Origin: Oscillospiraceae bacterium
GTDB taxonomy: Bacteria > Bacillota > Clostridia > Oscillospirales > Ruminococcaceae
DNA length: 64,000 nucleotides
Direction of reading: 5' to 3'
Assembly: GCA_902790675.1 (NCBI GenBank)
Contig: CADASU010000005.1
Location: 20,301 to 84,300, forward strand
Below the pieces are notes generated by a model. The model did no database searches, was not told the DNA's origin, and was given only the letters and a program-made list of their open reading frames with translations. Every line of letters begins with the position of its first letter. Positions within the stretch are counted from its first letter, which is position 1. This document shows, piece by piece, positions 49,473 through 61,347 of this stretch. The position numbers and the translations under genes are program-made.

Positions 49473-49862
49473 GGGGGCGTAAGGGATTCGACGGGAATGA
49501 AAGTGTATGATAAGCGAGTAGAGGAGATGCCACCTCTATAAAAGGCATATTTAAATTTTAAATGCAAAAAATAATGCAAGTATAGGCTTTGTTAACAGCA
49601 AAGCTCTTTTGGCAGCTTAATTAATTTTGCCAAGGTTGTATTCTAGTTTTGCTGCGAACTGAATTCAACTTCATTTGATTTTAGCAGTAAACAGTTCATG
49701 GAATATCTCAGTTCTTTGAACAGTGAATTAATGAGATACTCTATTTTATCGGTTTGCTTTTTGTCTATATAATATGAGGAATTTCTAACAATAAGCTACA
49801 CTCGTAGAAAGTTATACATACTCACTTTTCGGACAGGGGTTCAACTCCCCTCGCCTCCACCA
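49473..49862 (+). ncRNA. ssrA: tmRNA (SsrA)
   Basis: The 5' end GGGGGCGTAAGGGATTCGACGGG and the 3' end GGACAGGGGTTCAACTCCCCTCGCCTCCACCA form the tRNA-like domain. The internal reading frame GCA AAA AAT AAT GCA AGT ATA GGC TTT GTT AAC AGC AAA GCT CTT TTG GCA GCT TAA gives the tag AKNNASIGFVNSKALLAA, but the resume codon is not certain. Confidence 0.92.
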
Positions 49863-49882
49863 CTAGAACATGTAAAAATTTT

Positions 49883-49921
49883 AAGGCTTCCTGAGTTCAT
49901 ATTTTTCAGGAAGCCTTTTTC
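49883..49921 (+). terminator. Rho-independent terminator of ssrA
   Basis: Perfect 12-bp stem AAGGCTTCCTGA (49883-49894) / TCAGGAAGCCTT (49906-49917) followed by TTT. Confidence 0.8.
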
Positions 49922-50024: not shown

Positions 50025-51394
50025 TTAACTATTCATAAATTTTTTAATTTTATCTTCATATCCTCCTTTAAAAAATGCACATGTTGACTCATCTTTTCCG
50101 TAGAAATCTCCAGTACCCGCAAAAGCAATAACTCTACAATGTCCACCTCCACATTTTTCCCTATATTCGCAATTTCTACATTCTTTATTTCTGTCAAACA
50201 AATCTTGAACGGTTGTCAATACTGTGCTTAAATAATTAGATTTTGTCAATATATCTTTTAACTTCATATTTTTTAAATTTTCAAAATTCATGTTATATTT
50301 TTTTGCATATCCATTCCAACCGTTACATGGCAAAACTTGTCCATCAGGAGCAATGAAAATTTCATCTCTCGTGCGCCAGCAAGCTACCTGTTTAGAAAAA
50401 TCTGAAGTTTCATTACACTTTAGTGGAACAATGGACAAAATATTTGCTTGATTATCGGCAAAGCAAAAGTCTTTTAAATAAAATGCTACGTTCCAATTTT
50501 TTTCTTGTGTGCATAAAGTAAATCTATGTAAGCATCATAGCAATCTTCATATGATAAAGCTTTATTTTCCTCCGGAAGTAGACTCCATCGTAATGTCTCA
50601 GCAGTTCTATATACTTCAACTTGAGTAACGCCCATATTATTCATAAGTTCAACTGTGTCGTTAAGAACATGAATATTACCTTGGTGTATACAACATACAG
50701 CTATAACATAAAAATCATTTTCCACTAACATCTTTATTGCATTTAACGCATCTTTTTCTGCACCATCTACTCCTCTCATCCAATTATGATATCCTATGCC
50801 ATCAAAACTAACACTAAATGATGGCTTTATGTTTCTTTTTATTATTTCATCAATAAATTCTTTGGTTATAAGTGAACCATTTGTGTTTATGGAAGCAATT
50901 TTAACATTTCTTTTTAATAATTCATCCACAATGTCAAAAAAGTCATTTCTAAGAAGTGGCTCTCCACCTGTAAAAATAACTCTTTCTATTCCACAGTCTG
51001 CTATTTGATTAGCTATATCCAAACAGTCTTCAAGTGGTAGTTCATCGTTCCTGTTTTCACCATCAGATGCCATAAAACAATGTCGACATTTGTAGTTACA
51101 TCTTTCTGTAAGTCCCCACCTAACTTGATGAAAATACCTATTATTAAAAAATTTATATTGTTGATTTGTTTCTAATTTCTTACCTTCTTCGTTCAAATGA
51201 ATAATATTTGCGTTTAATAATTGTTTAATAACATCATTATTTTCCAAATCATGGTTTCCATCACATTTCTTTAATATGTCAAACTCTTCTAAATCTAAAG
51301 TTCTTACTGATGCATTTTTGTTAATATTAAATAAAACTCTTGGAATTCTCAACCAGCCTCTAAGACCTAATTACCTATTTAATAATAATTTCAT
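50025..51394 (-). pseudogene. Radical SAM/SPASM peptide-maturase gene, interrupted (in-frame TAA at codon 8 and a frameshift at an A7 run); may be a pseudogene, a sequencing artefact or a recoded gene
   Basis: Track ORF 50486-51352 carries the radical SAM core CNYKCRHC (CxxxCxxC) and a GGEPLL-type segment. Track ORF 50025-50438 carries a Cys-rich SPASM-type tail (CRNCEYREKCGGGHC; 8 Cys in total). The two frames are joined by one extra A in the A7 run (plus-strand T7 at 50497-50503), giving ...LLYAHKKKNWNVAFYLKDFCFADNQANILSIVPLKCNE.... Upstream, a strong SD (GGAGGG, 5 nt) precedes ATG 51394, giving MKLLLNR-TAA(51371-51373)-LGLRGW-(TTG 51352)RIPRVLFNINKNASVRTLDLEEFDILKKCDG, all in one frame. 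Confidence 0.6.
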
Positions 51395-51471
51395 AACAGC
51401 CCTCCATTACTCAACATATTAAATTATATGTACTATAAATAATATATATCTTATGTCTATTTTTGCCAAAT

Positions 51472-51500
51472 AATATAAAGGTTTTATCTATTTTTGTCAA
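51472..51500 (-). promoter_or_regulatory. Sigma-A-type promoter for the radical SAM gene
   Basis: The minus strand reads TTGACA (plus 51495-51500), a 17-nt spacer, then TATATT (plus 51472-51477). Confidence 0.5.
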
Positions 51501-51648: not shown

Positions 51649-51692
51649 CAAAAAATTACCCTTCATCAACAATTGCTTTAATGAAGGGTAAT
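51649..51692 (-). terminator. Rho-independent terminator of the KS-KS'-DH-ACP operon
   Basis: Perfect 12-bp stem ATTACCCTTCAT (51655-51666) / ATGAAGGGTAAT (51681-51692). On the minus strand it is followed by TTTTT. Confidence 0.7.
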
Positions 51693-51764
51693 TTAAAACC
51701 ACATACATCTATTGTAAAAAAACACCCAAACTTATATTTGCTTAATATTATTTATTAAAGATTA

Positions 51765-52004
51765 TTATTTCTTGTTACTCTCAATTATATTAACTATGTC
51801 TTCAATTGTTCTAAGCTCAGAAATTTTTTCAGGCTCAACAACAACATTAAATTTTCCTTCAACCATTCCAAATACTTCAAGTATGTTTAAAGAATCCAAG
51901 CCTACTTCCTCCAGAAGATTTGCATCTCTTGGAATATCATCGGTATCCTTCCCAGTAATCTTGCTTAACTCTTCCCTAACCATTTTTTCAGTATCATTCA
52001 TCAC
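51765..52004 (-). CDS. Acyl carrier protein (cluster-dedicated)
   Basis: 79 aa and acidic, with a GLDSLNILE phosphopantetheine attachment motif (DSL). Confidence 0.82.
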   Translation of the reverse strand: MMNDTEKMVREELSKITGKDTDDIPRDANLLEEVGLDSLNILEVFGMVEGKFNVVVEPEKISELRTIEDIVNIIESNKK

Positions 52005-52036: not shown

Positions 52037-52450
52037 TTATTTTATTACTATAGTTAGCTCTGCTTCAGCTGCCATGACATTATCAACATACGTAGAACAA
52101 TCTGCTCTTAAAACTCTAAAAGAGTCCTTTATAACTTCCATTTTAACCGATATTAAATCACAAGGCAACACTAATTTTTTGAATTTTACGTTTTGCATTT
52201 CTGCAACAACAGGAATTCCGTCTATTTTTCTAGTATACCCAACAAAAGCTGCGGTAAGTTGAGCCATAATCTCACAGAGAATAGATCCTGGTACAATTTT
52301 TTTATAAGGATAATGCCCATCCAAAAAAAACTCATTTCCTTTAACTTTATATATACCCTCAGCACAAGTTCCATCTATACTAACAATTTCATCCAACAAT
52401 AACATACTATTTCTATGAGGAATTAATTTTTTTAAATCAAACTCCTTCAT
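52037..52450 (-). CDS. FabZ-like 3-hydroxyacyl-ACP dehydratase (hot-dog fold)
   Basis: LIPHRNSMLLLDEIV and GHYPYKKIVPGSILCEIMAQ match the FabZ patterns LPHR.P.LLVD and GHFP..P.mPGVL..EA.AQ. Confidence 0.82.
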   Translation of the reverse strand: MKEFDLKKLIPHRNSMLLLDEIVSIDGTCAEGIYKVKGNEFFLDGHYPYKKIVPGSILCEIMAQLTAAFVGYTRKIDGIPVVAEMQNVKFKKLVLPCDLISVKMEVIKDSFRVLRADCSTYVDNVMAAEAELTIVIK

Positions 52451-52452
52451 AA

Positions 52453-53385
52453 TTAATTAGCGCCTCCTGTCAATTGTATCGCAGAAACAAAACCTCCAGC
52501 ATCCCCACAAATGATTAAACTATCTTTAGTCAACTTATTTTTATAATTTGACAAGCATCTTCCAAGATCAATAATAGGAGTTATTGAAAACATATTTTTG
52601 TTAATTAATGGCTGAACTTCTATATCGTCCTTTTCCAGCTGATTTAATATATCGTTTGCTATGTCAAAATCTCCAGACAAATAAATATCAACTGCTTTCA
52701 AGTCAGCGTCAAAAGCTTTCTCCAATGAACAAATACACTCTTTTGCACTAACATGACCTAAATATCTTGAATAACAATTTTTAATATAACAAATAGGCTG
52801 CTGCTCTGATTTTTCTTTTTCATAACTATTTATAAAAACAATAGAAGAACCTATTTCTTCTGTAGCACAAGCCAATATCTGAGTTGAATTTTTATATTTT
52901 ATATTATAGTAAGCATCTATAATCGCATTCAAGCCAGAATGAACCCCTTCAGATAGCGCATAAACTTTACCTCTAAATTGATTCCAAATGCACAATCTAC
53001 TTACAACAGCATTTCCAACAGTATTTGTAAAAGACGTAGGATTTACAAAATTAGCACCCTTTTCTTCAATTGACAAATTAAATTCAGCAGAAGGATAAAT
53101 AGCAGAAGAATAGCTTCCTGCTATTACTGACAAATTATGTCGATCTATGTCATCAAACATTCCCTTATCCTCAGCCAATTTCGCTGCTGCTTCTAAGGTT
53201 AGCGATTGCCTGTCCACAAGTCGCGTGTTTAAATTTCCCAATGACTGCGTCAATTTCTCTATTGAGCAAAAGTTTATATTTCCAGATTTTTCATTTACTT
53301 TTCTTACAAAATCATGTGTCTGCATGTAATTAAATCCAAAGTCTTCGATATAATAAAAAGCTGAATAAATTGCAATTTTCTCCAT
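52453..53385 (-). CDS. Ketosynthase-like protein lacking the catalytic Cys/His/His (chain-length-factor-like partner)
   Basis: 310 aa. The region DRHNLSVIAGSYSS...FVNPTSFTNTVGNAVVSRLCIWNQFRGKVYALSEGVHSGLNAIIDAY aligns by eye to the KS N-terminal domain, but the active-site Cys position is SEG and no HGTGT or GH.LG motifs are present. It is translationally coupled on both sides (gaps of 4 and 2 nt). Confidence 0.55.
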   Translation of the reverse strand: MEKIAIYSAFYYIEDFGFNYMQTHDFVRKVNEKSGNINFCSIEKLTQSLGNLNTRLVDRQSLTLEAAAKLAEDKGMFDDIDRHNLSVIAGSYSSAIYPSAEFNLSIEEKGANFVNPTSFTNTVGNAVVSRLCIWNQFRGKVYALSEGVHSGLNAIIDAYYNIKYKNSTQILACATEEIGSSIVFINSYEKEKSEQQPICYIKNCYSRYLGHVSAKECICSLEKAFDADLKAVDIYLSGDFDIANDILNQLEKDDIEVQPLINKNMFSITPIIDLGRCLSNYKNKLTKDSLIICGDAGGFVSAIQLTGGAN

Positions 53386-53389
53386 TTTA

Positions 53390-54640
53390 TCATACCTCCT
53401 TGTATCTAGAAATAACTAAGCTTGAATTATTTCCACCAAACGCAAAAGAGTTTGAAAGTATATTATCTATTTTCATTTCTCGGCTAACATTAGGAACACA
53501 ATCTACTGGACAATCTTCATCTGGTTCTTCGAAGTTAGCTGTTGGAGTAATCATATTATTTTGAATCATTAAAACACAAGCAACTGCCTCAATAGCTGCT
53601 GACGCTCCTAATGAATGCCCTATCATAGACTTTATAGAACTAACCGGAGGAATCTTATCTCCAAATACAGAGCATATTGCTTTGGACTCTATTTTGTCAT
53701 TCAATTTTGTACCCGTGCCGTGCGCAGAAATATAATCTATATCTTCAGGAGAAATTTGTGATTTTTGTAAAGCTTCTTTCATTGAAGAAATTGGTCCTGA
53801 TGAGTCTGGTCTTGGTGCTGTAATGTGGTAGGCATCTATGCTTAAACCATATCCTTTAATTTCTCCATATATATGTGCTTTTCTCCTTAAGGCTGATTCC
53901 AAATCTTCCAAGATTAAAATTCCACAGCCTTCACTTACAACCAAACCTTTTCGATTTTTATCAAAAGGTCTACACACGTCACTAGTAAGAGAAAGTAATC
54001 TATTAAACCCAATTAAAGCAGTTAGTGAAAAAGAATCCACTCCACCCACTATGGCTACTTGGGCATCACCATGTTTTATCCTATCATATCCCCAGCCTAT
54101 CGAATAGTTTCCTGCTGCACAAGCATTCAAAAAAAGACGTGATTCCATATTTTTAAAATTAAAATATTTACAAACTGTAGATAGAATATCTCCAGGATAT
54201 AAATTTTTAATAGCATTATTACATAAATTCTGATCTTTACTTTGCAATAAATTTTGAAACAAATTATAATTTATTTGATAATCTGCTTTTTGTGAGCTCT
54301 TACCCATGGTACTTCCTAAAGAAATTACCATTTTATTGCTTATATCATCTAGGTTTAGTTTACTATCTTCTAACGCCATATTAATCGACTTTATTGTCAT
54401 CTTTTCCGATCTATCTATTTCCGCAAATTTTATGCCATTTCGATCTGCTAAATAATGCGATTTGTTAAAGTCTTTGATTTCTCCAGATATTTTAACCCTT
54501 AAGTCATTAAAAGAATCGAAAGAAGTTGGCCCAGTAAAAACTTTACCATTTGATATATTTTCCCAAAAGGCATCCTTTCCAATGCTTCCCGGCGCCATGA
54601 CTTCAATACCAGTTACTACAACTCGATTCAAACTATTCAC
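53390..54640 (-). CDS. Beta-ketoacyl-ACP synthase (FabF/KAS II-like)
   Basis: RVVVTGIEVMAPG N-terminus, NACAAG active-site Cys, AHGTGT and GHSLGASA His motifs, NSFAFGGNNSSL C-terminus. The start is ambiguous (GTG 54640 or TTG 54631). A 6-codon mini-ORF (ATG AAA AAA GAG GGT GAA TAG) with its own GGAGGA overlaps the start. Confidence 0.85.
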   Translation of the reverse strand: MNSLNRVVVTGIEVMAPGSIGKDAFWENISNGKVFTGPTSFDSFNDLRVKISGEIKDFNKSHYLADRNGIKFAEIDRSEKMTIKSINMALEDSKLNLDDISNKMVISLGSTMGKSSQKADYQINYNLFQNLLQSKDQNLCNNAIKNLYPGDILSTVCKYFNFKNMESRLFLNACAAGNYSIGWGYDRIKHGDAQVAIVGGVDSFSLTALIGFNRLLSLTSDVCRPFDKNRKGLVVSEGCGILILEDLESALRRKAHIYGEIKGYGLSIDAYHITAPRPDSSGPISSMKEALQKSQISPEDIDYISAHGTGTKLNDKIESKAICSVFGDKIPPVSSIKSMIGHSLGASAAIEAVACVLMIQNNMITPTANFEEPDEDCPVDCVPNVSREMKIDNILSNSFAFGGNNSSLVISRYKEV

Positions 54641-54818: not shown

Positions 54819-55559
54819 ATGTCAAGATTAGATGGTAAAATAGCTGTTGTTACTGGTGGATCTAGAGGTATTGGAAAAGCTATTTGCTTAAAATTAGCTG
54901 AACATGGAGCCAATGTTTCTTTTGTTTATGCCAACAATAAAGAAAAAGCTGATTCTACTATTAAAGAATTGTCTAATTTTAATAATGATGGTTCAGCTTA
55001 CAAATGCGATGTGGCTGACGATTTAGCAGTAAAAGACCTAGTAAACAAAATAATAGGCAAATACGGAAAAATAGATATACTAGTAAATAATGCGGGCATT
55101 ACAGATGATAAGTTAGCTTTCAATATGGACTATAATTGTTTTAACAAAGTTATTCAAACTAATTTATTAGGCACTTTTAATATGATACACCACTGCTATA
55201 TGAATTTTATAAAAAATAATGGCGGAAGAATAATAAATATATCATCCGTGGTTGGCCTAAATGGAAATATAGGACAATCTAACTATGCAGCCTCTAAAGC
55301 CGGAATAATTGGTTTAACTAAATCTATAGCAAAAGAACTTGGTCGCAAAAATGTAACATGTAATGTAGTAGCACCAGGTTTTATAGAAACCGAAATGACA
55401 AGTAGTTTAAAAAATCCAGACAATATTCTACGTAACATACCCTTAAATAGATTTGGATCAGCTGAAGATGTTGCTGATGCTGCTTTATTTCTTGCTTCAG
55501 ATGAAGCTAAATATATAACAGGTTCAATTATAAAAGTTGATGGTGGATTAATTTTATAA
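54819..55559 (+). CDS. 3-oxoacyl-ACP reductase (FabG-like SDR)
   Basis: VVTGGSRGIGKAI, NNAGIT and the YAASKAG (YxxxK) catalytic motif; 246 aa. Confidence 0.85.
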   Translation: MSRLDGKIAVVTGGSRGIGKAICLKLAEHGANVSFVYANNKEKADSTIKELSNFNNDGSAYKCDVADDLAVKDLVNKIIGKYGKIDILVNNAGITDDKLAFNMDYNCFNKVIQTNLLGTFNMIHHCYMNFIKNNGGRIINISSVVGLNGNIGQSNYAASKAGIIGLTKSIAKELGRKNVTCNVVAPGFIETEMTSSLKNPDNILRNIPLNRFGSAEDVADAALFLASDEAKYITGSIIKVDGGLIL

Positions 55560-55609: not shown

Positions 55610-56494
55610 TTGATTAAAATATCTAAAATTTGCACAAAAGACGATATTGCTTTGTTTAAACGCTTTATAAATGAATATATACCTTTTTCTGATGACAGTT
55701 TATGGCTTGGCGCCACTATTAACGGAATTCCATGTGGAGTCTTATTTGCAGATATTATAAGTGAAGATTCTAAAATTGGGGATATACAATTTTTATTTGT
55801 ACATCCTATAACAAGACGTATGGGTGTAGCTACAAAACTTTTAAATACATTTATTGAAGAAGCAAAAAAATTAAAGTGTAAAAAAGTTATTATTAAATCT
55901 GTAAAAGATATGAAAACAATAAATGAAATAAGTCCTTTTTTTAAAAATTACGGATTTGATCCTGTAGAAATTGAAGCAAATATTTATACTATTACACCCC
56001 AATATTTTCATGAGAGTGGTAAAATTGAAGAATTTGCCAATAGAAAAATAATAATTCCCCCAAATATAAAGATATATCCATCAGATGAAATAGATAAAAG
56101 TTTACTTGATTCTTTAAAAGCAAAAAGCGATATAGATTATTTAAAAATATACGATCCTTTTCCAGAAAATGATAAATTTAAATTAAAGCACATTAATACG
56201 CTTTTTGCAGTTTACAATTCCAATGAAATAGTAGGCTGGATGGTGGGCTTAGACGCATTTGGAGAATCTATTTATTATAAAACGCTCTTTGTAAAAGAAA
56301 AATATAGACATTTATATTTAGGATTAATTTTGCAAAACATGTGCTTAAAGAATCATATGACAAAATATCTCGATAGGTCTGTACTTCTGGGTATATCTAT
56401 AAGGAATGATCGTGCTTTAAAATTCTTTTCAATATATTCTAAGGGAATAAATAAAGATATAAATTACGAATTTAATTTTACCAAAAATTTATAA
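55610..56494 (+). CDS. Two-domain GNAT-family acyltransferase (candidate peptide N-acyltransferase)
   Basis: The N-terminal domain has a classic GNAT motif A, IQFLFVHPITRRMGVATKLLNTFIEEAKKLKCKKVII...FFKNYGF. The C-terminal half repeats a GNAT-like pattern (VGWMVGLD...LFVKEKYRHLYLGLILQNMCL...ALKFFS). TTG start after AAGGGGGA. Confidence 0.65.
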   Translation: MIKISKICTKDDIALFKRFINEYIPFSDDSLWLGATINGIPCGVLFADIISEDSKIGDIQFLFVHPITRRMGVATKLLNTFIEEAKKLKCKKVIIKSVKDMKTINEISPFFKNYGFDPVEIEANIYTITPQYFHESGKIEEFANRKIIIPPNIKIYPSDEIDKSLLDSLKAKSDIDYLKIYDPFPENDKFKLKHINTLFAVYNSNEIVGWMVGLDAFGESIYYKTLFVKEKYRHLYLGLILQNMCLKNHMTKYLDRSVLLGISIRNDRALKFFSIYSKGINKDINYEFNFTKNL

Positions 56495-56850: not shown

Positions 56851-57132
56851 ATGACATTTAAGGAATTTTTAGAAAAACGCCCAGAAGACGTTAAAAAAGC
56901 AAAAGCATGCAAAACTATAGAGGAATTTAAAAAAATGGTAGATGGCTTTGGAATTTCTTATAAAGGAGATGCCGAGCTGCACGAAGCATTTGATATTGTT
57001 AAAAACAAATTATCAAATGAAGATTTAGATAATGTTGCAGGTGGCGCTTCTTACAAGCATAGAGGAGATCATGTGTATTACAACAAATTCAACAGCGATG
57101 TAATCACTGAGGGTACAGGTAAAAAAATATAA
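56851..57132 (+). CDS. RiPP precursor peptide 1, Nif11-like leader with double-glycine site
   Basis: 93 aa. The 65-aa leader is MTFKEFLEKRPEDVKKAKACKTIEEFKKMVDGFGISYKGDAELHEAFDIVKNKLSNEDLDNVAGG. It parallels the Nif11-type leader layout (..L.AF..K...D..L...LKA......v.iAK.aGF.It..eL....LSDeELE.VAGG). The core is ASYKHRGDHVYYNKFNSDVITEGTGKKI. Good RBS (AAGGGGAG, 7 nt). Confidence 0.78.
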   Translation: MTFKEFLEKRPEDVKKAKACKTIEEFKKMVDGFGISYKGDAELHEAFDIVKNKLSNEDLDNVAGGASYKHRGDHVYYNKFNSDVITEGTGKKI

Positions 57133-57367: not shown

Positions 57368-57655
57368 ATGACGTTTAAAGAGTTTTTAGAAAAACGCCCA
57401 GAGGACGTAAAAAAAGCAAAAGCATGCAAAAATCTAGATGAGTTCAAAAAAATGGTAGATGGCTTTGGAATTTCTTATAAAGGAGATTCTGAATTACAAC
57501 AAGCATATGATTTGATTAAAAATAGCCAAAACCAGTTGTCAGACGATGACTTAAATAATGTTGCAGGTGGCGCTAGACTTCATAGAAAAGGAAGCGCGTT
57601 TCACAATAAAGACACCGGCGAAACCATAACTTTAGATTCAGGTAAAAAAGTATAA
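57368..57655 (+). CDS. RiPP precursor peptide 2, Nif11-like leader with double-glycine site
   Basis: 95 aa from ATG 57368 (AAAGGAGGA, 7 nt). The track start at 57329 adds an unlikely MKNKKRKEKEEFF extension that covers the RBS. The leader is MTFKEFLEKRPEDVKKAKACKNLDEFKKMVDGFGISYKGDSELQQAYDLIKNSQNQLSDDDLNNVAGG. The core is ARLHRKGSAFHNKDTGETITLDSGKKV. Confidence 0.78.
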   Translation: MTFKEFLEKRPEDVKKAKACKNLDEFKKMVDGFGISYKGDSELQQAYDLIKNSQNQLSDDDLNNVAGGARLHRKGSAFHNKDTGETITLDSGKKV

Positions 57656-59102: not shown

Positions 59103-60875
59103 ATGAAAAGAAAAATAATAACAAAATTTTTATCAACCACACTAGTAGCAACATCTATTTTTTCTACTAGCTTAACTTTACCAGCTAGCGCAAACGATGC
59201 AACGTTTAGACTGATTTTTTCTAGCTACATGGATGATATTAATAATAGTTTTTCGGAGAAGAATCCAAAAAGCGGTCTCACCACAAACCGGATTGATGAT
59301 TCATTAATAAAAGAATTTAAAGATGTGATGGATAACATGGTTAAAAATTACAATGATGCAAGTGATTATTGTACAGACGATATAGATGCTAAGAAAAAAT
59401 TTAACGACATTAAAAAAGAATGTTCGAAGAATGAATTAATCCAACTTCTACAACAAAAGATTACTGACGATACAAATATTATATCCGATAATTTTAAAAA
59501 CACTTTCAAACAATTTATTAAACAAATATTTGATGCTGCATCATGTTTTATTAATAAAAGCCAATATAGAAAAGAAATTACAATAAAACGCCAAGTTCGC
59601 AAAGACGAGATATCTTTTGATGAAAAAAAATTAAAAAAAATATTTAATAAAGAAAAACTTAAAAACAAGTTAGATGAAAATGTCATTGCATACATGAAAA
59701 ACTTTGTAGCCCAGTCAAAGAAATCCATCCCATTAAATGAAGATGACACTGAAGAAATAAAAAAAGTTGTAGCCCCGGTAAAGAATTTAACAAATTCCAC
59801 CCAATCAAATAAAGATGATACTGCAGAAACAATAATTTATTACTTTAAAGAAAGGGGCAATTTACCTGAGCAGATTAAAAATGCAATAAATGATGAAACC
59901 GATAAAAAAACGATTAATAAAACAATTAAAAGACTAAAAACCAAAAAAATGGTCAAAGACGGTTATATAGATGAAAAAGAATATATTGTTAATTATTCCG
60001 TAGCAATACAATTTTTAACCGATTGTCTTAATATATTAAAGTCAAATGGTAGAATCGATTTGTATGACTACACTATTTCAAATAAAGAATATAATGATAT
60101 ATTAAATAAACACTTTAGAGATGCTTGCGTTGACTCCGAACTAATAAAAAATCATGATGATAACATAGATGGTTTAAACGCCGACATCAAAATAAAATCT
60201 AAAGTAGATAGCACATCTATCGACGATAGTGACGATAGTAAAGAACATATCGAGTTAGATGATAAAATTACTGCTTCAAAAGATGTCTTACAACACATTT
60301 TTGTTGGAGATGACATTTTGGAACAATCCACCGCCACCCTATCAACCGGCCATACTAACTATTCTATACCTGCTTTAAATGATATTGCAAATAAAAATTA
60401 TGAAAAAATGCAAAAATTTTCTAATAATAACTCCTTATCTAAGATTTTTATGTTATCTACAGGACTTGATGCTAGTAAATTGAACACTGAAAAAGTAGAA
60501 GGCATTAACACTCCCTTAAATAAAGATAATTTAAGTAAAAAATACTCATATGCCTGTTTGGGCAGGTTTTGGGGAACAAATAAAGGAATATTTCCCGAGA
60601 AGTGGACATGGACAAAAATTAGTGACGCCATTAGTAATATTCTAACATCAAATAATCTTGAATACACCAAAGAAAAGATAGATGAAAAAAATAACGTATA
60701 TAGATATGCATGCTTTTATGGAACATATGAAGAAGTTCCCATCGTAGTTTTTGTTAATTTAACTGATAAATCACTTGTTACAGCTTATCCATTATCTAAA
60801 GATGGCTTTGACAATAATAAAAAAGCAGCTTTAGGTAACAAAAATATTAAGCCTAAAAATCACAAAAAATCTTAA
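59103..60875 (+). CDS. Secreted protein with C-terminal bacterial-EndoU-like RNase toxin domain (putative)
   Basis: Sec signal peptide ending ASA-ND. The C-terminal region has LQHIFVGDD....STGH ... NKGIFPEKWTWTKISDAISNILTS ... EEVPIVVFVNLTDKSLVTAYPLS. This resembles the EndoU_bacteria pattern HIL.GD..GGGH...GK..FP..WS..KI...I......G..I.VV.....I.TAYP, but with about 90 extra residues between the GH and FP..W blocks. Confidence 0.5.
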   Translation: MKRKIITKFLSTTLVATSIFSTSLTLPASANDATFRLIFSSYMDDINNSFSEKNPKSGLTTNRIDDSLIKEFKDVMDNMVKNYNDASDYCTDDIDAKKKFNDIKKECSKNELIQLLQQKITDDTNIISDNFKNTFKQFIKQIFDAASCFINKSQYRKEITIKRQVRKDEISFDEKKLKKIFNKEKLKNKLDENVIAYMKNFVAQSKKSIPLNEDDTEEIKKVVAPVKNLTNSTQSNKDDTAETIIYYFKERGNLPEQIKNAINDETDKKTINKTIKRLKTKKMVKDGYIDEKEYIVNYSVAIQFLTDCLNILKSNGRIDLYDYTISNKEYNDILNKHFRDACVDSELIKNHDDNIDGLNADIKIKSKVDSTSIDDSDDSKEHIELDDKITASKDVLQHIFVGDDILEQSTATLSTGHTNYSIPALNDIANKNYEKMQKFSNNNSLSKIFMLSTGLDASKLNTEKVEGINTPLNKDNLSKKYSYACLGRFWGTNKGIFPEKWTWTKISDAISNILTSNNLEYTKEKIDEKNNVYRYACFYGTYEEVPIVVFVNLTDKSLVTAYPLSKDGFDNNKKAALGNKNIKPKNHKKS

Positions 60876-60939
60876 ATTAACAATATTGACATATTAAACT
60901 AACTATGGTACAATATGCGATAGCGTGGAGGTTTGGTTA

Positions 60940-61347
60940 ATGTATTCAAATGTGTCTTATTGTAGTTGCAATGATCAACTAAAAGGAAATTTGTACCAGT
61001 TATGGAGTTTTCAAAATGAAGGAATTACTCCAAGATGGCAGGCTGCATATAGTAATATGCATGATGAGTTTATTAAAGCTTTGTCTTCTGATGTAGATGC
61101 CGCTATTTCATTTTTTGGCGTTTTGAATCTTGATAGTGAAGTAGACGCTTTTGCTATCCACTTTGTAGATGAAATTATTAGCAATTTTAAAACAAAAGAA
61201 GAAAAGGAAAAATTTACAAAATGTATTAATGAACTGAGTAAGAAATATTCCGATAGTCCATATGTTAACTGGAATGTTTTTCGCTTCTATAGTGCTATGC
61301 ACGCCATAGAAGAGTTAAACACAGATGGTGAAGATAATTATGATTGA
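60940..61347 (+). CDS. Small acidic cytoplasmic protein, putative cognate immunity protein
   Basis: 135 aa from ATG 60940 (GGAGG, 8 nt), 64 nt after the toxin-like gene and on the same strand. No signal peptide and no family recognised. Confidence 0.35.
   Translation: MYSNVSYCSCNDQLKGNLYQLWSFQNEGITPRWQAAYSNMHDEFIKALSSDVDAAISFFGVLNLDSEVDAFAIHFVDEIISNFKTKEEKEKFTKCINELSKKYSDSPYVNWNVFRFYSAMHAIEELNTDGEDNYD

Follow-up and report, generated by a model that had tools for sequence, protein, structure and literature searches.

The rSAM/SPASM gene and its two lesions

The window analyzed here is a stretch of 64,000 nucleotides (nt) from an Oscillospiraceae bacterium (assembly GCA_902790675.1, contig CADASU010000005.1, positions 20,301 to 84,300). 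Its minus strand harbors a probable pseudogene of a radical SAM (rSAM)/SPASM maturase (50025–51394), which comprises 456 codons when one A is restored, is recognized by Pfam, and shares 95% identity with two intact proteins, P0001 and P0123. An earlier note, made from the letters and open reading frames (ORFs) of this DNA, had proposed a once-intact maturase gene with two separate lesions, and every coordinate given there was correct when the minus strand was re-read. The gene is preceded by the strong Shine–Dalgarno (SD) sequence GGAGGG (51400–51405, minus strand), which serves the ATG at 51394–51392 with a spacer of 5 nt and is kept in the related loci L001, L002, and L086. The first seven codons read MKLLLNR. 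The first lesion is the in-frame TAA at codon 8 (51371–51373), which replaces an ancestral CAA (Gln) by a C>T transition. Past this stop codon, the frame continues with LGLRGWLRIPRVL and the radical SAM cluster motif CNYKCRHC (CX3CX2C, 51077–51100), which is kept in the truncated product and whose cysteines C99, C103, and C106 are invariant in the alignments. It ends with AAG AAA AAA ATT GGA ACG TAG, the premature TAG at 50486–50488 closing the radical SAM core frame (AHKKKIGT). The second lesion is the A7 run in this sequence (plus-strand T7, 50497–50503), where the sister lineage has A8, indicating a deletion of 1 nt.

The SPASM tail lies out of frame at 50025–50534 on the minus strand. Its frame is open from 50534 to the TAA at 50025–50027, crosses the A7 run, and encodes a Pfam SPASM domain with seven conserved auxiliary-cluster cysteines (50381–50079). 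When one A is added, the two frames fuse to AHKKKNWNVAFYLKDFCFADNQ across the junction. The fusion predicted by the earlier note was thus recovered, and it matches the intact orthologues residue for residue; only the length of the product had to be corrected, from about 455 to 456 amino acids. The repaired protein scores 80.6 bits against Pfam Radical_SAM (PF04055, cut-off 29.5) and 36.2 bits against Pfam SPASM (PF13186, cut-off 21.5). All seven SPASM cysteines (C339, C357, C406, C409, C415, C420, and C439) are invariant and located past the frameshift. An in-frame fusion of the SPASM domain with the rSAM core exists solely in the repaired reading, P0001, and P0123; in the window, the domain is out of frame.

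Public gene callers annotate a 288-amino-acid "radical SAM" ORF and a 137-amino-acid "SPASM" ORF at this site. The sole in-frame candidate for a restart after the TAA is a TTG (51350–51352, minus strand) with AGAGG located 4 nt upstream. A restart at this codon gives the 288-amino-acid product, which lacks 16 conserved N-terminal residues including the LRGW motif. The SPASM frame contains no ATG, and its first possible start, TTG 50438, has no SD sequence.

An alternative genetic code was considered and rejected. The stop codons of the window genes (TAA 32, TAG 10, TGA 8) all end genes of normal length, and the rSAM gene itself terminates with TAA; because all three stops are used in this way, recoding is not an issue.

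Intact orthologues and the ancestral allele

A homologue search covering ~5.8 billion proteins yielded 164 homologues. The closest one, P0001 (locus L001), has 456 amino acids and is 95% identical at the amino acid level over its full length (~94% at the nucleotide level). P0123 (locus L085; NCBI assembly GCA_978016555.1), a second intact orthologue of 456 amino acids, belongs to the same 90% cluster as P0001. Both proteins begin with MKLLLNTQLGLRGWL and read AHKKKNWNVAFYLKDFCFADNQ over the junction; this part of both, AHKKKNWNVAFYLKDF, equals the repaired reading of the window exactly. The nucleotide sequences differ at the two lesions. Around codon 8, L001 and L085 read AAT ACG CAA TTA, whereas the window reads AAT AGG TAA TTA, and at the run, AAG AAA AAA AAT TGG (A8) stands against A7 in the window. 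Codon 8 is CAA in L001, L085, L091, and L092, CAG in L002, and AAG in L086. More distant orthologues have no A-run at this site (L002 AAGAAGAACAAT, L091 AAAAAGAAAAAT, L086 AAAAACAGAGAT, L092 AGAGACAGAAAC), and the run is limited to the clade of the window, L001, and L085.

This comparison shows that the recent ancestor had one uninterrupted gene of 456 codons, in which codon 8 was CAA and codons 299–301 contained the A8 run. The window allele is the derived one (C>T nonsense mutation plus 1-nt deletion), because L001 and L085 carry CAA and A8. The comparison of run length and codon 8 suggested in the earlier note therefore favors its view of a once-intact gene with two lesions. A scan of genome contigs with back-translated family patterns (generic rSAM motifs) returned no sister genome among the matches listed, which were exclusively relatives of ≤30% identity from rumen Clostridiales, Lachnospiraceae, and Butyrivibrio. 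The JGI metagenome contigs contained no match to a pattern allowing A7 or A8 or to a 28-mer shared without change by the window, L001, and L002.

The N-terminal segment and the predicted fold

All of the ~90 homologues, which reach down to 28% identity, consist of one protein of ~450–550 amino acids. Nearly all of them begin with hxLxxxxxLRGW, and the segment MKLLLNxQLGLRGW belongs to the protein in these homologues. The gene call of P0004 began at an internal ATG; the N-terminal segment is regained when an in-frame TTG start with GGAGGG is used. Owing to this family-wide motif and the start of P0004, codons 1–16 belong to the protein and do not form a leader mini-ORF. The idea that codons 1–7 are such a mini-ORF, with reinitiation at TTG 51352, is contradicted by the homologues, in which the segment is conserved and which place it in frame with the remaining protein. 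Likewise, two separate proteins, an architecture the earlier note had allowed for in orthologues, were not found; the ~90 homologues are single, in agreement with its reading of one intact gene.

The AlphaFold model of P0001 has a mean per-residue confidence (pLDDT) of 85.8. It displays a confident N-terminal beta/alpha domain (residues 1–67), in which residues 2–5 and 9–14 form two strands with a pLDDT >90; in the window, this domain is beheaded by the TAA, and a restart at TTG 51352 would delete both strands. The best PDB match found with Foldseek is SuiB (TM score 0.61–0.64 over ~480 columns), followed by PqqE, SkfB, CteB, and anSME. The assumption that the residues after the TAA form the N-terminal peptide-binding region fits the model and the match to SuiB.

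Selection and age of the inactivation

The ratio of non-synonymous to synonymous substitution rates (dN/dS) of the rSAM gene is 0.16 between the window and L085 and 0.21 between L085 and L002, and none of the residues that are invariant across the aligned family has changed in the window copy. The ratios indicate purifying selection on the gene. Because of these low ratios and the complete set of invariant residues, the gene was most likely functional until recently and its inactivation is recent. With L002 as the outgroup, changes on the single branches were polarized by parsimony. In the rSAM gene, seven non-synonymous and eight synonymous changes fell on the window branch, compared to 3 and 28 in the neighboring genes for a ketosynthase (KS), a KS-like/chain-length factor (CLF), and a dehydratase (DH) taken together (Fisher's exact test, p = 0.008). 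The corresponding numbers for the L085 branch were 6:11 and 6:16 (p = 0.73). This suggests relaxed constraint on the window rSAM branch, with the reservation that the counts are small.

Interpretation of the interrupted gene

The window sequence including both lesions recurs with 100% identity in three assemblies made from different inputs and with different pipelines, namely ENA ERZ1029115 (12.9 kb), the STEW19 rumen scaffold ENA ERZ28614353 (7.5 kb), and Logan ERR3275112, assembled from one run (3.3 kb). The exact 288-amino-acid product is recorded on seven contigs and the exact 137-amino-acid product on seven to eight (NCBI, ENA, and Logan). Scanning the 64 kb for homopolymers at abutting long frames revealed five sites, and only the rSAM site is a true split; two of the other four are antisense to genes, and the remaining two are overlaps between neighbors of different Pfam families (YabP/YqfD and UvrB/UvrA). 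None of the other A/T runs of at least 7 nt inside long ORFs of the window (86 runs) breaks a frame. No further split gene was found among the adjacent ORF pairs YabP/YqfD, UvrB/UvrA, DagK/YbeY, PlsY/GpsA, and YlxM/Ffh, each of which encodes distinct Pfam families.

Taken together, we consider the locus a genuine and very recent pseudogene of a SuiB-like rSAM/SPASM peptide maturase, with a probability of roughly 85%. For an accessory gene, a homopolymer frameshift together with a nonsense codon is ordinary biology. In the window lineage, a C>T transition created the TAA at codon 8, and one A was lost from the run, probably by replication slippage in the homopolymer. At most, the 288-amino-acid fragment starting at TTG 51352 would remain. 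It would keep the CX3CX2C SAM cluster, lack the two N-terminal beta-strands (LRGW) as well as the whole SPASM domain, and should be unable to modify the precursor. Since the fatty acid synthase (FAS)-like genes, the GNAT gene, and the precursor genes are intact, production of an acylated peptide that lacks the rSAM modification may continue in this strain. Of the four options named in the earlier note, a decaying pseudogene in a cluster that perhaps still acylates is the one favored here, the acylation genes being intact.

Several points weigh against this interpretation. The body of the L002 gene is otherwise intact though its N-terminal segment is out of frame, and as L002 keeps this intact body, loss of the N-terminus alone might be tolerated. 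The three assemblies may share one rumen study or overlapping read sets, which makes their independence partial. Furthermore, the analysis is based on assembled contigs, behind which heterogeneity at the A7 run or low-level slippage products may exist, and the non-synonymous excess on the window branch comprises small counts obtained by simple parsimony.

Among the alternatives, a leaky rescue would accept the lesions as real and produce the full frame from TTG 51352, with an extra A added by transcriptional slippage or with a −1 slip of the ribosome. One such slip or one added A gives the orthologue sequence exactly (KKKNWNV), the AGAGG ahead of TTG 51352 could serve the start, L002 likewise starts past the N-terminal segment, and slippage on A/T runs is able to rescue frameshifted genes (Baranov et al., 2005; PMC1088944). 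Selection against slippage is, however, typically seen from ~9 nt and occasionally from 8 nt, a length that is productive in some insertion sequence elements (PMC1088944), and the window run of 7 nt is below this range. The A-run is not conserved in the orthologues, and the 121 nt around and after it (50400–50520) fold no better than shuffled sequences (z = +0.49), giving no sign of a stimulatory downstream RNA structure. The rescued product would still lack the N-terminal strands that are conserved throughout the family. A leaky rescue is therefore improbable. The same applies to a broader speculation that a mutational or slippage "dimmer" in the form of the A8/A7 run controls the tailoring step of a new rumen lipopeptide pathway, by which strains of one species would make either a modified or an unmodified acyl-peptide and A7 would yield trace amounts of enzyme via TTG 51352; we give it little credence.

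A sequencing or assembly artefact, with A8, CAA, and an intact gene in the true genome, is quite improbable as well. Homopolymer length is a classic source of error, and the contigs sharing the lesions may derive from one study (ERZ10291xx, STEW19, and ERR3275112). Against an artefact stand the complete identity over 3.3–12.9 kb in three assembly inputs and pipelines and the nature of the first lesion, which is a base substitution and thus beyond homopolymer error. In addition, the other A/T runs of ≥7 nt within ORFs are free of frameshift signatures, and the intact allele is known only on a haplotype that diverges by ~5–6%, not on that of the window. The option of a homopolymer error raised in the earlier note is disfavored on these grounds.

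A phase-variable switch, in which A8/A7 slippage reversibly turns the tailoring enzyme on and off within a population, is very improbable. Both run lengths do occur in related lineages of one sample series (ERZ1029114 and ERZ1029115). Nevertheless, the A8 and A7 haplotypes differ at ~5–6% of their bases and are not variants of one clone, and all A7 contigs read at the DNA level match the window at every other position as well. Run-length polymorphism among near-identical genomes was not seen in the assemblies, all contigs of the window haplotype that were read having A7. An A-run of 7–8 nt is also short for a contingency locus. The A7 allele additionally carries the TAA at codon 8, a change that cannot be undone by slippage; together with the divergence of the haplotypes, this makes a reversible switch unlikely. 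Neither phase-variable nor programmed slippage is supported, as the run and the two-frame layout expected for programmed −1 frameshifting or transcriptional slippage are not conserved, the orthologues are single ORFs, an RNA structure is lacking, and the same allele has a nonsense codon. A functional split enzyme, assembled from a 288-amino-acid core and a separately made 137-amino-acid SPASM piece, would agree with the annotation of both pieces by gene callers and with a break between barrel and SPASM domain in the AlphaFold model, but is hardly credible, because none of the ~90 homologues is divided in this way, the nearest relatives are fused, and the SPASM frame has no ATG, its TTG start without SD dropping 32 further codons (48 in all) of the inter-domain linker past the frameshift.

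The gene cluster around the rSAM gene

Two promoter-like sequences were found upstream of the rSAM gene on the minus strand by a consensus scan, TTGACA-17-TATATT (51472–51500) and TTGGCA-17-TATATT (51441–51469), and this region is conserved in L001. They are part of tandem near-duplicate elements (51432–51500), TTGACAAAAATAGATAAAAC and TTGGCAAAAATAGACATAAG, which could be a repeated operator or promoter. Further upstream, a terminator-like hairpin followed by a T-run (51653–51694, minus strand) is located after the acyl carrier protein (ACP) gene and parts the FAS-like operon from the rSAM gene. This operon is also encoded on the minus strand and comprises the genes for the ACP (51765–52001, called as 78 amino acids), a FabZ/ApeI-like dehydratase (52037–52450), a KS-like/CLF protein (52453–53385), and a KS (53390–54631). 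Each of the four genes is as long as its counterpart in L085 and L002, and their dN/dS values are 0.07–0.22.

The genes for FabG, GNAT, and the precursors are oriented divergently from ACP-DH-CLF-KS and again have the lengths found in L085 and L002. On the plus strand, an intact gene for the ketoreductase FabG (54819–55559) is followed by an intact gene for a GNAT acyltransferase of 294 amino acids (55610–56494; Pfam 52.5 bits, cut-off 20.7). The GNAT evolves faster at the protein level than its neighbors (dN/dS 0.34 in comparison with L085 and 0.68 with L002), and its dS toward L002 is oddly low (0.27). Two genes for Nif11-like precursors (56851–57132 and 57368–57655, plus strand) are located in the same cluster, ~5.5 kb from the rSAM gene. 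Their leaders end with NVAGG; their cores contain neither Cys nor Trp and end with GKK[I/V]. Against the Nif11 leader model TIGR03798, the precursors score 20–23 bits, below the cut-off of 32.3. The two genes are paralogues (~77% nucleotide identity). In the core of the second one, ARLHRKGSAFHNKDTGETITLDSGKKV, the motifs YKH and YYxK are lost, both of which are kept in the first precursor and in both precursors of L085 (L085:3535–4479); the second precursor has a dS of 0.75 between the window and L085.

Downstream of the rSAM gene, the tmRNA gene (49473–49862) is followed by smpB-recR-ybaB-dnaX. The synteny of the window and L085, with ~94% identity over the cluster, is lost close to the tmRNA gene, at most ~20 nt from its 3′ end (49862–49883; L085:11513). 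Past this break, L085 has genes for an amine oxidase, GtrA, and a glycosyltransferase in place of ssrA-smpB-recR, a pattern reminiscent of a rearrangement or of an island at the tmRNA site. On the other side of the cluster, two ORFs of 590 (59103–60875) and 140 amino acids (60925–61347) without a Pfam match are located between dtd and the spoIIIA operon; the larger one has a counterpart of 536 amino acids in L085, also without a Pfam hit. The host encodes SpoIIIA proteins, YqfD, and YabP, and its GatB shares ~62% identity with proteins of named Oscillospiraceae and Paludicola. Accordingly, it is a spore-forming bacterium of the Clostridia that is uncultured and comes from assemblies of cattle rumen.

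Related loci differ in their integrity and in their gene content. L002 (Logan SRR28154260; 77% amino acid identity in the rSAM protein) is a syntenic cluster that has acquired two different lesions. Its N-terminal MKLLLNKQLGLRGW is out of frame owing to a 1-nt insertion (L002:5419–5500), the rSAM body restarting at a new ATG (MPRVL), and a 2-nt deletion divides fabG into pieces of 43 and 217 amino acids (L002:1784–1915). Independent decay of the cluster in several lineages is one possible reason; errors in the single assembly of L002 are another. The gene of P0007 (38% identical; L089:8379–9973 and L090) is preceded by four precursor-like genes of 86–123 amino acids with GG-type leaders and Cys-rich cores, and a CspB/S8 peptidase gene follows. 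Judging from this locus, the enzyme family appears to serve Cys-rich precursors elsewhere and Cys-free cores here. P0004 (66% identical; L086:144–3318) is encoded between a methyltransferase and an alpha/beta hydrolase, and FAS and GNAT genes are absent from its 5.3-kb contig; given this neighborhood, the enzyme seems not to be tied to a lipopeptide context.

Implications and comparison with known systems

For annotation and genome mining, the 288- and 137-amino-acid ORFs of the public gene callers are best regarded as fragments of one dead gene, and the fully tailored product is not to be expected from the window copy of the cluster. P0123 (GCA_978016555.1) or P0001 provides the intact allele suited to heterologous expression. 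The allele pair, residing in otherwise near-identical clusters, would represent a natural knockout for the action of a SuiB-like enzyme on Cys-free Nif11-type cores.

The interrupted gene is similar to homopolymer-frameshift pseudogenes and slippage-rescued genes (PMC1088944), in that a 1-nt change in an A-run splits the ORF and one A restores it. It differs from slippage-rescued genes in the 7-nt length of the run, in a two-ORF layout that is not conserved, and in the presence of a second, unrelated nonsense lesion.

The repaired protein and its orthologues share a three-part architecture with SuiB, the streptide Lys-Trp cross-linking rSAM/SPASM maturase (PDB 5V1T), and with CteB, SkfB, PqqE, and anSME. 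It consists of a putative N-terminal domain of the peptide-binding type, a barrel with the CX3CX2C motif, and a SPASM domain with seven cysteines. A further possible likeness to the SuiB kind is the location of the rSAM gene near putative precursor genes with a GG-type leader. However, the sequence identity is just 16–20%, no NCBIfam equivalog cut-off is reached (best score 119 bits vs. 500), the window gene is broken, and the precursor cores are devoid of Cys and Trp.

With regard to the whole cluster, selidamide clusters combine a GNAT with Nif11 or NHLP precursors (PMC8784127), and the window likewise has a GNAT gene adjoining genes for Nif11-like precursors whose core ends are rich in Lys. 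The adjacent genes scanned include none for lanthionine or avionin enzymes, an arginase, a peptidase, or a transporter. The set of KS, CLF, FabZ, ACP, and FabG, instead of FabH-type enzymes or a type I polyketide synthase, distinguishes the cluster from those of known ribosomal lipopeptides, as do the firmicute rumen host and the added SuiB-like rSAM gene. Goadvionins and lipoavitides (bioRxiv 10.1101/2023.10.25.564083), whose pathways also include a GNAT, share with it dedicated genes of the fatty acid or polyketide type with their own ACP, and in its overall gene content, the window locus resembles a cluster of the ribosomal lipopeptide type.

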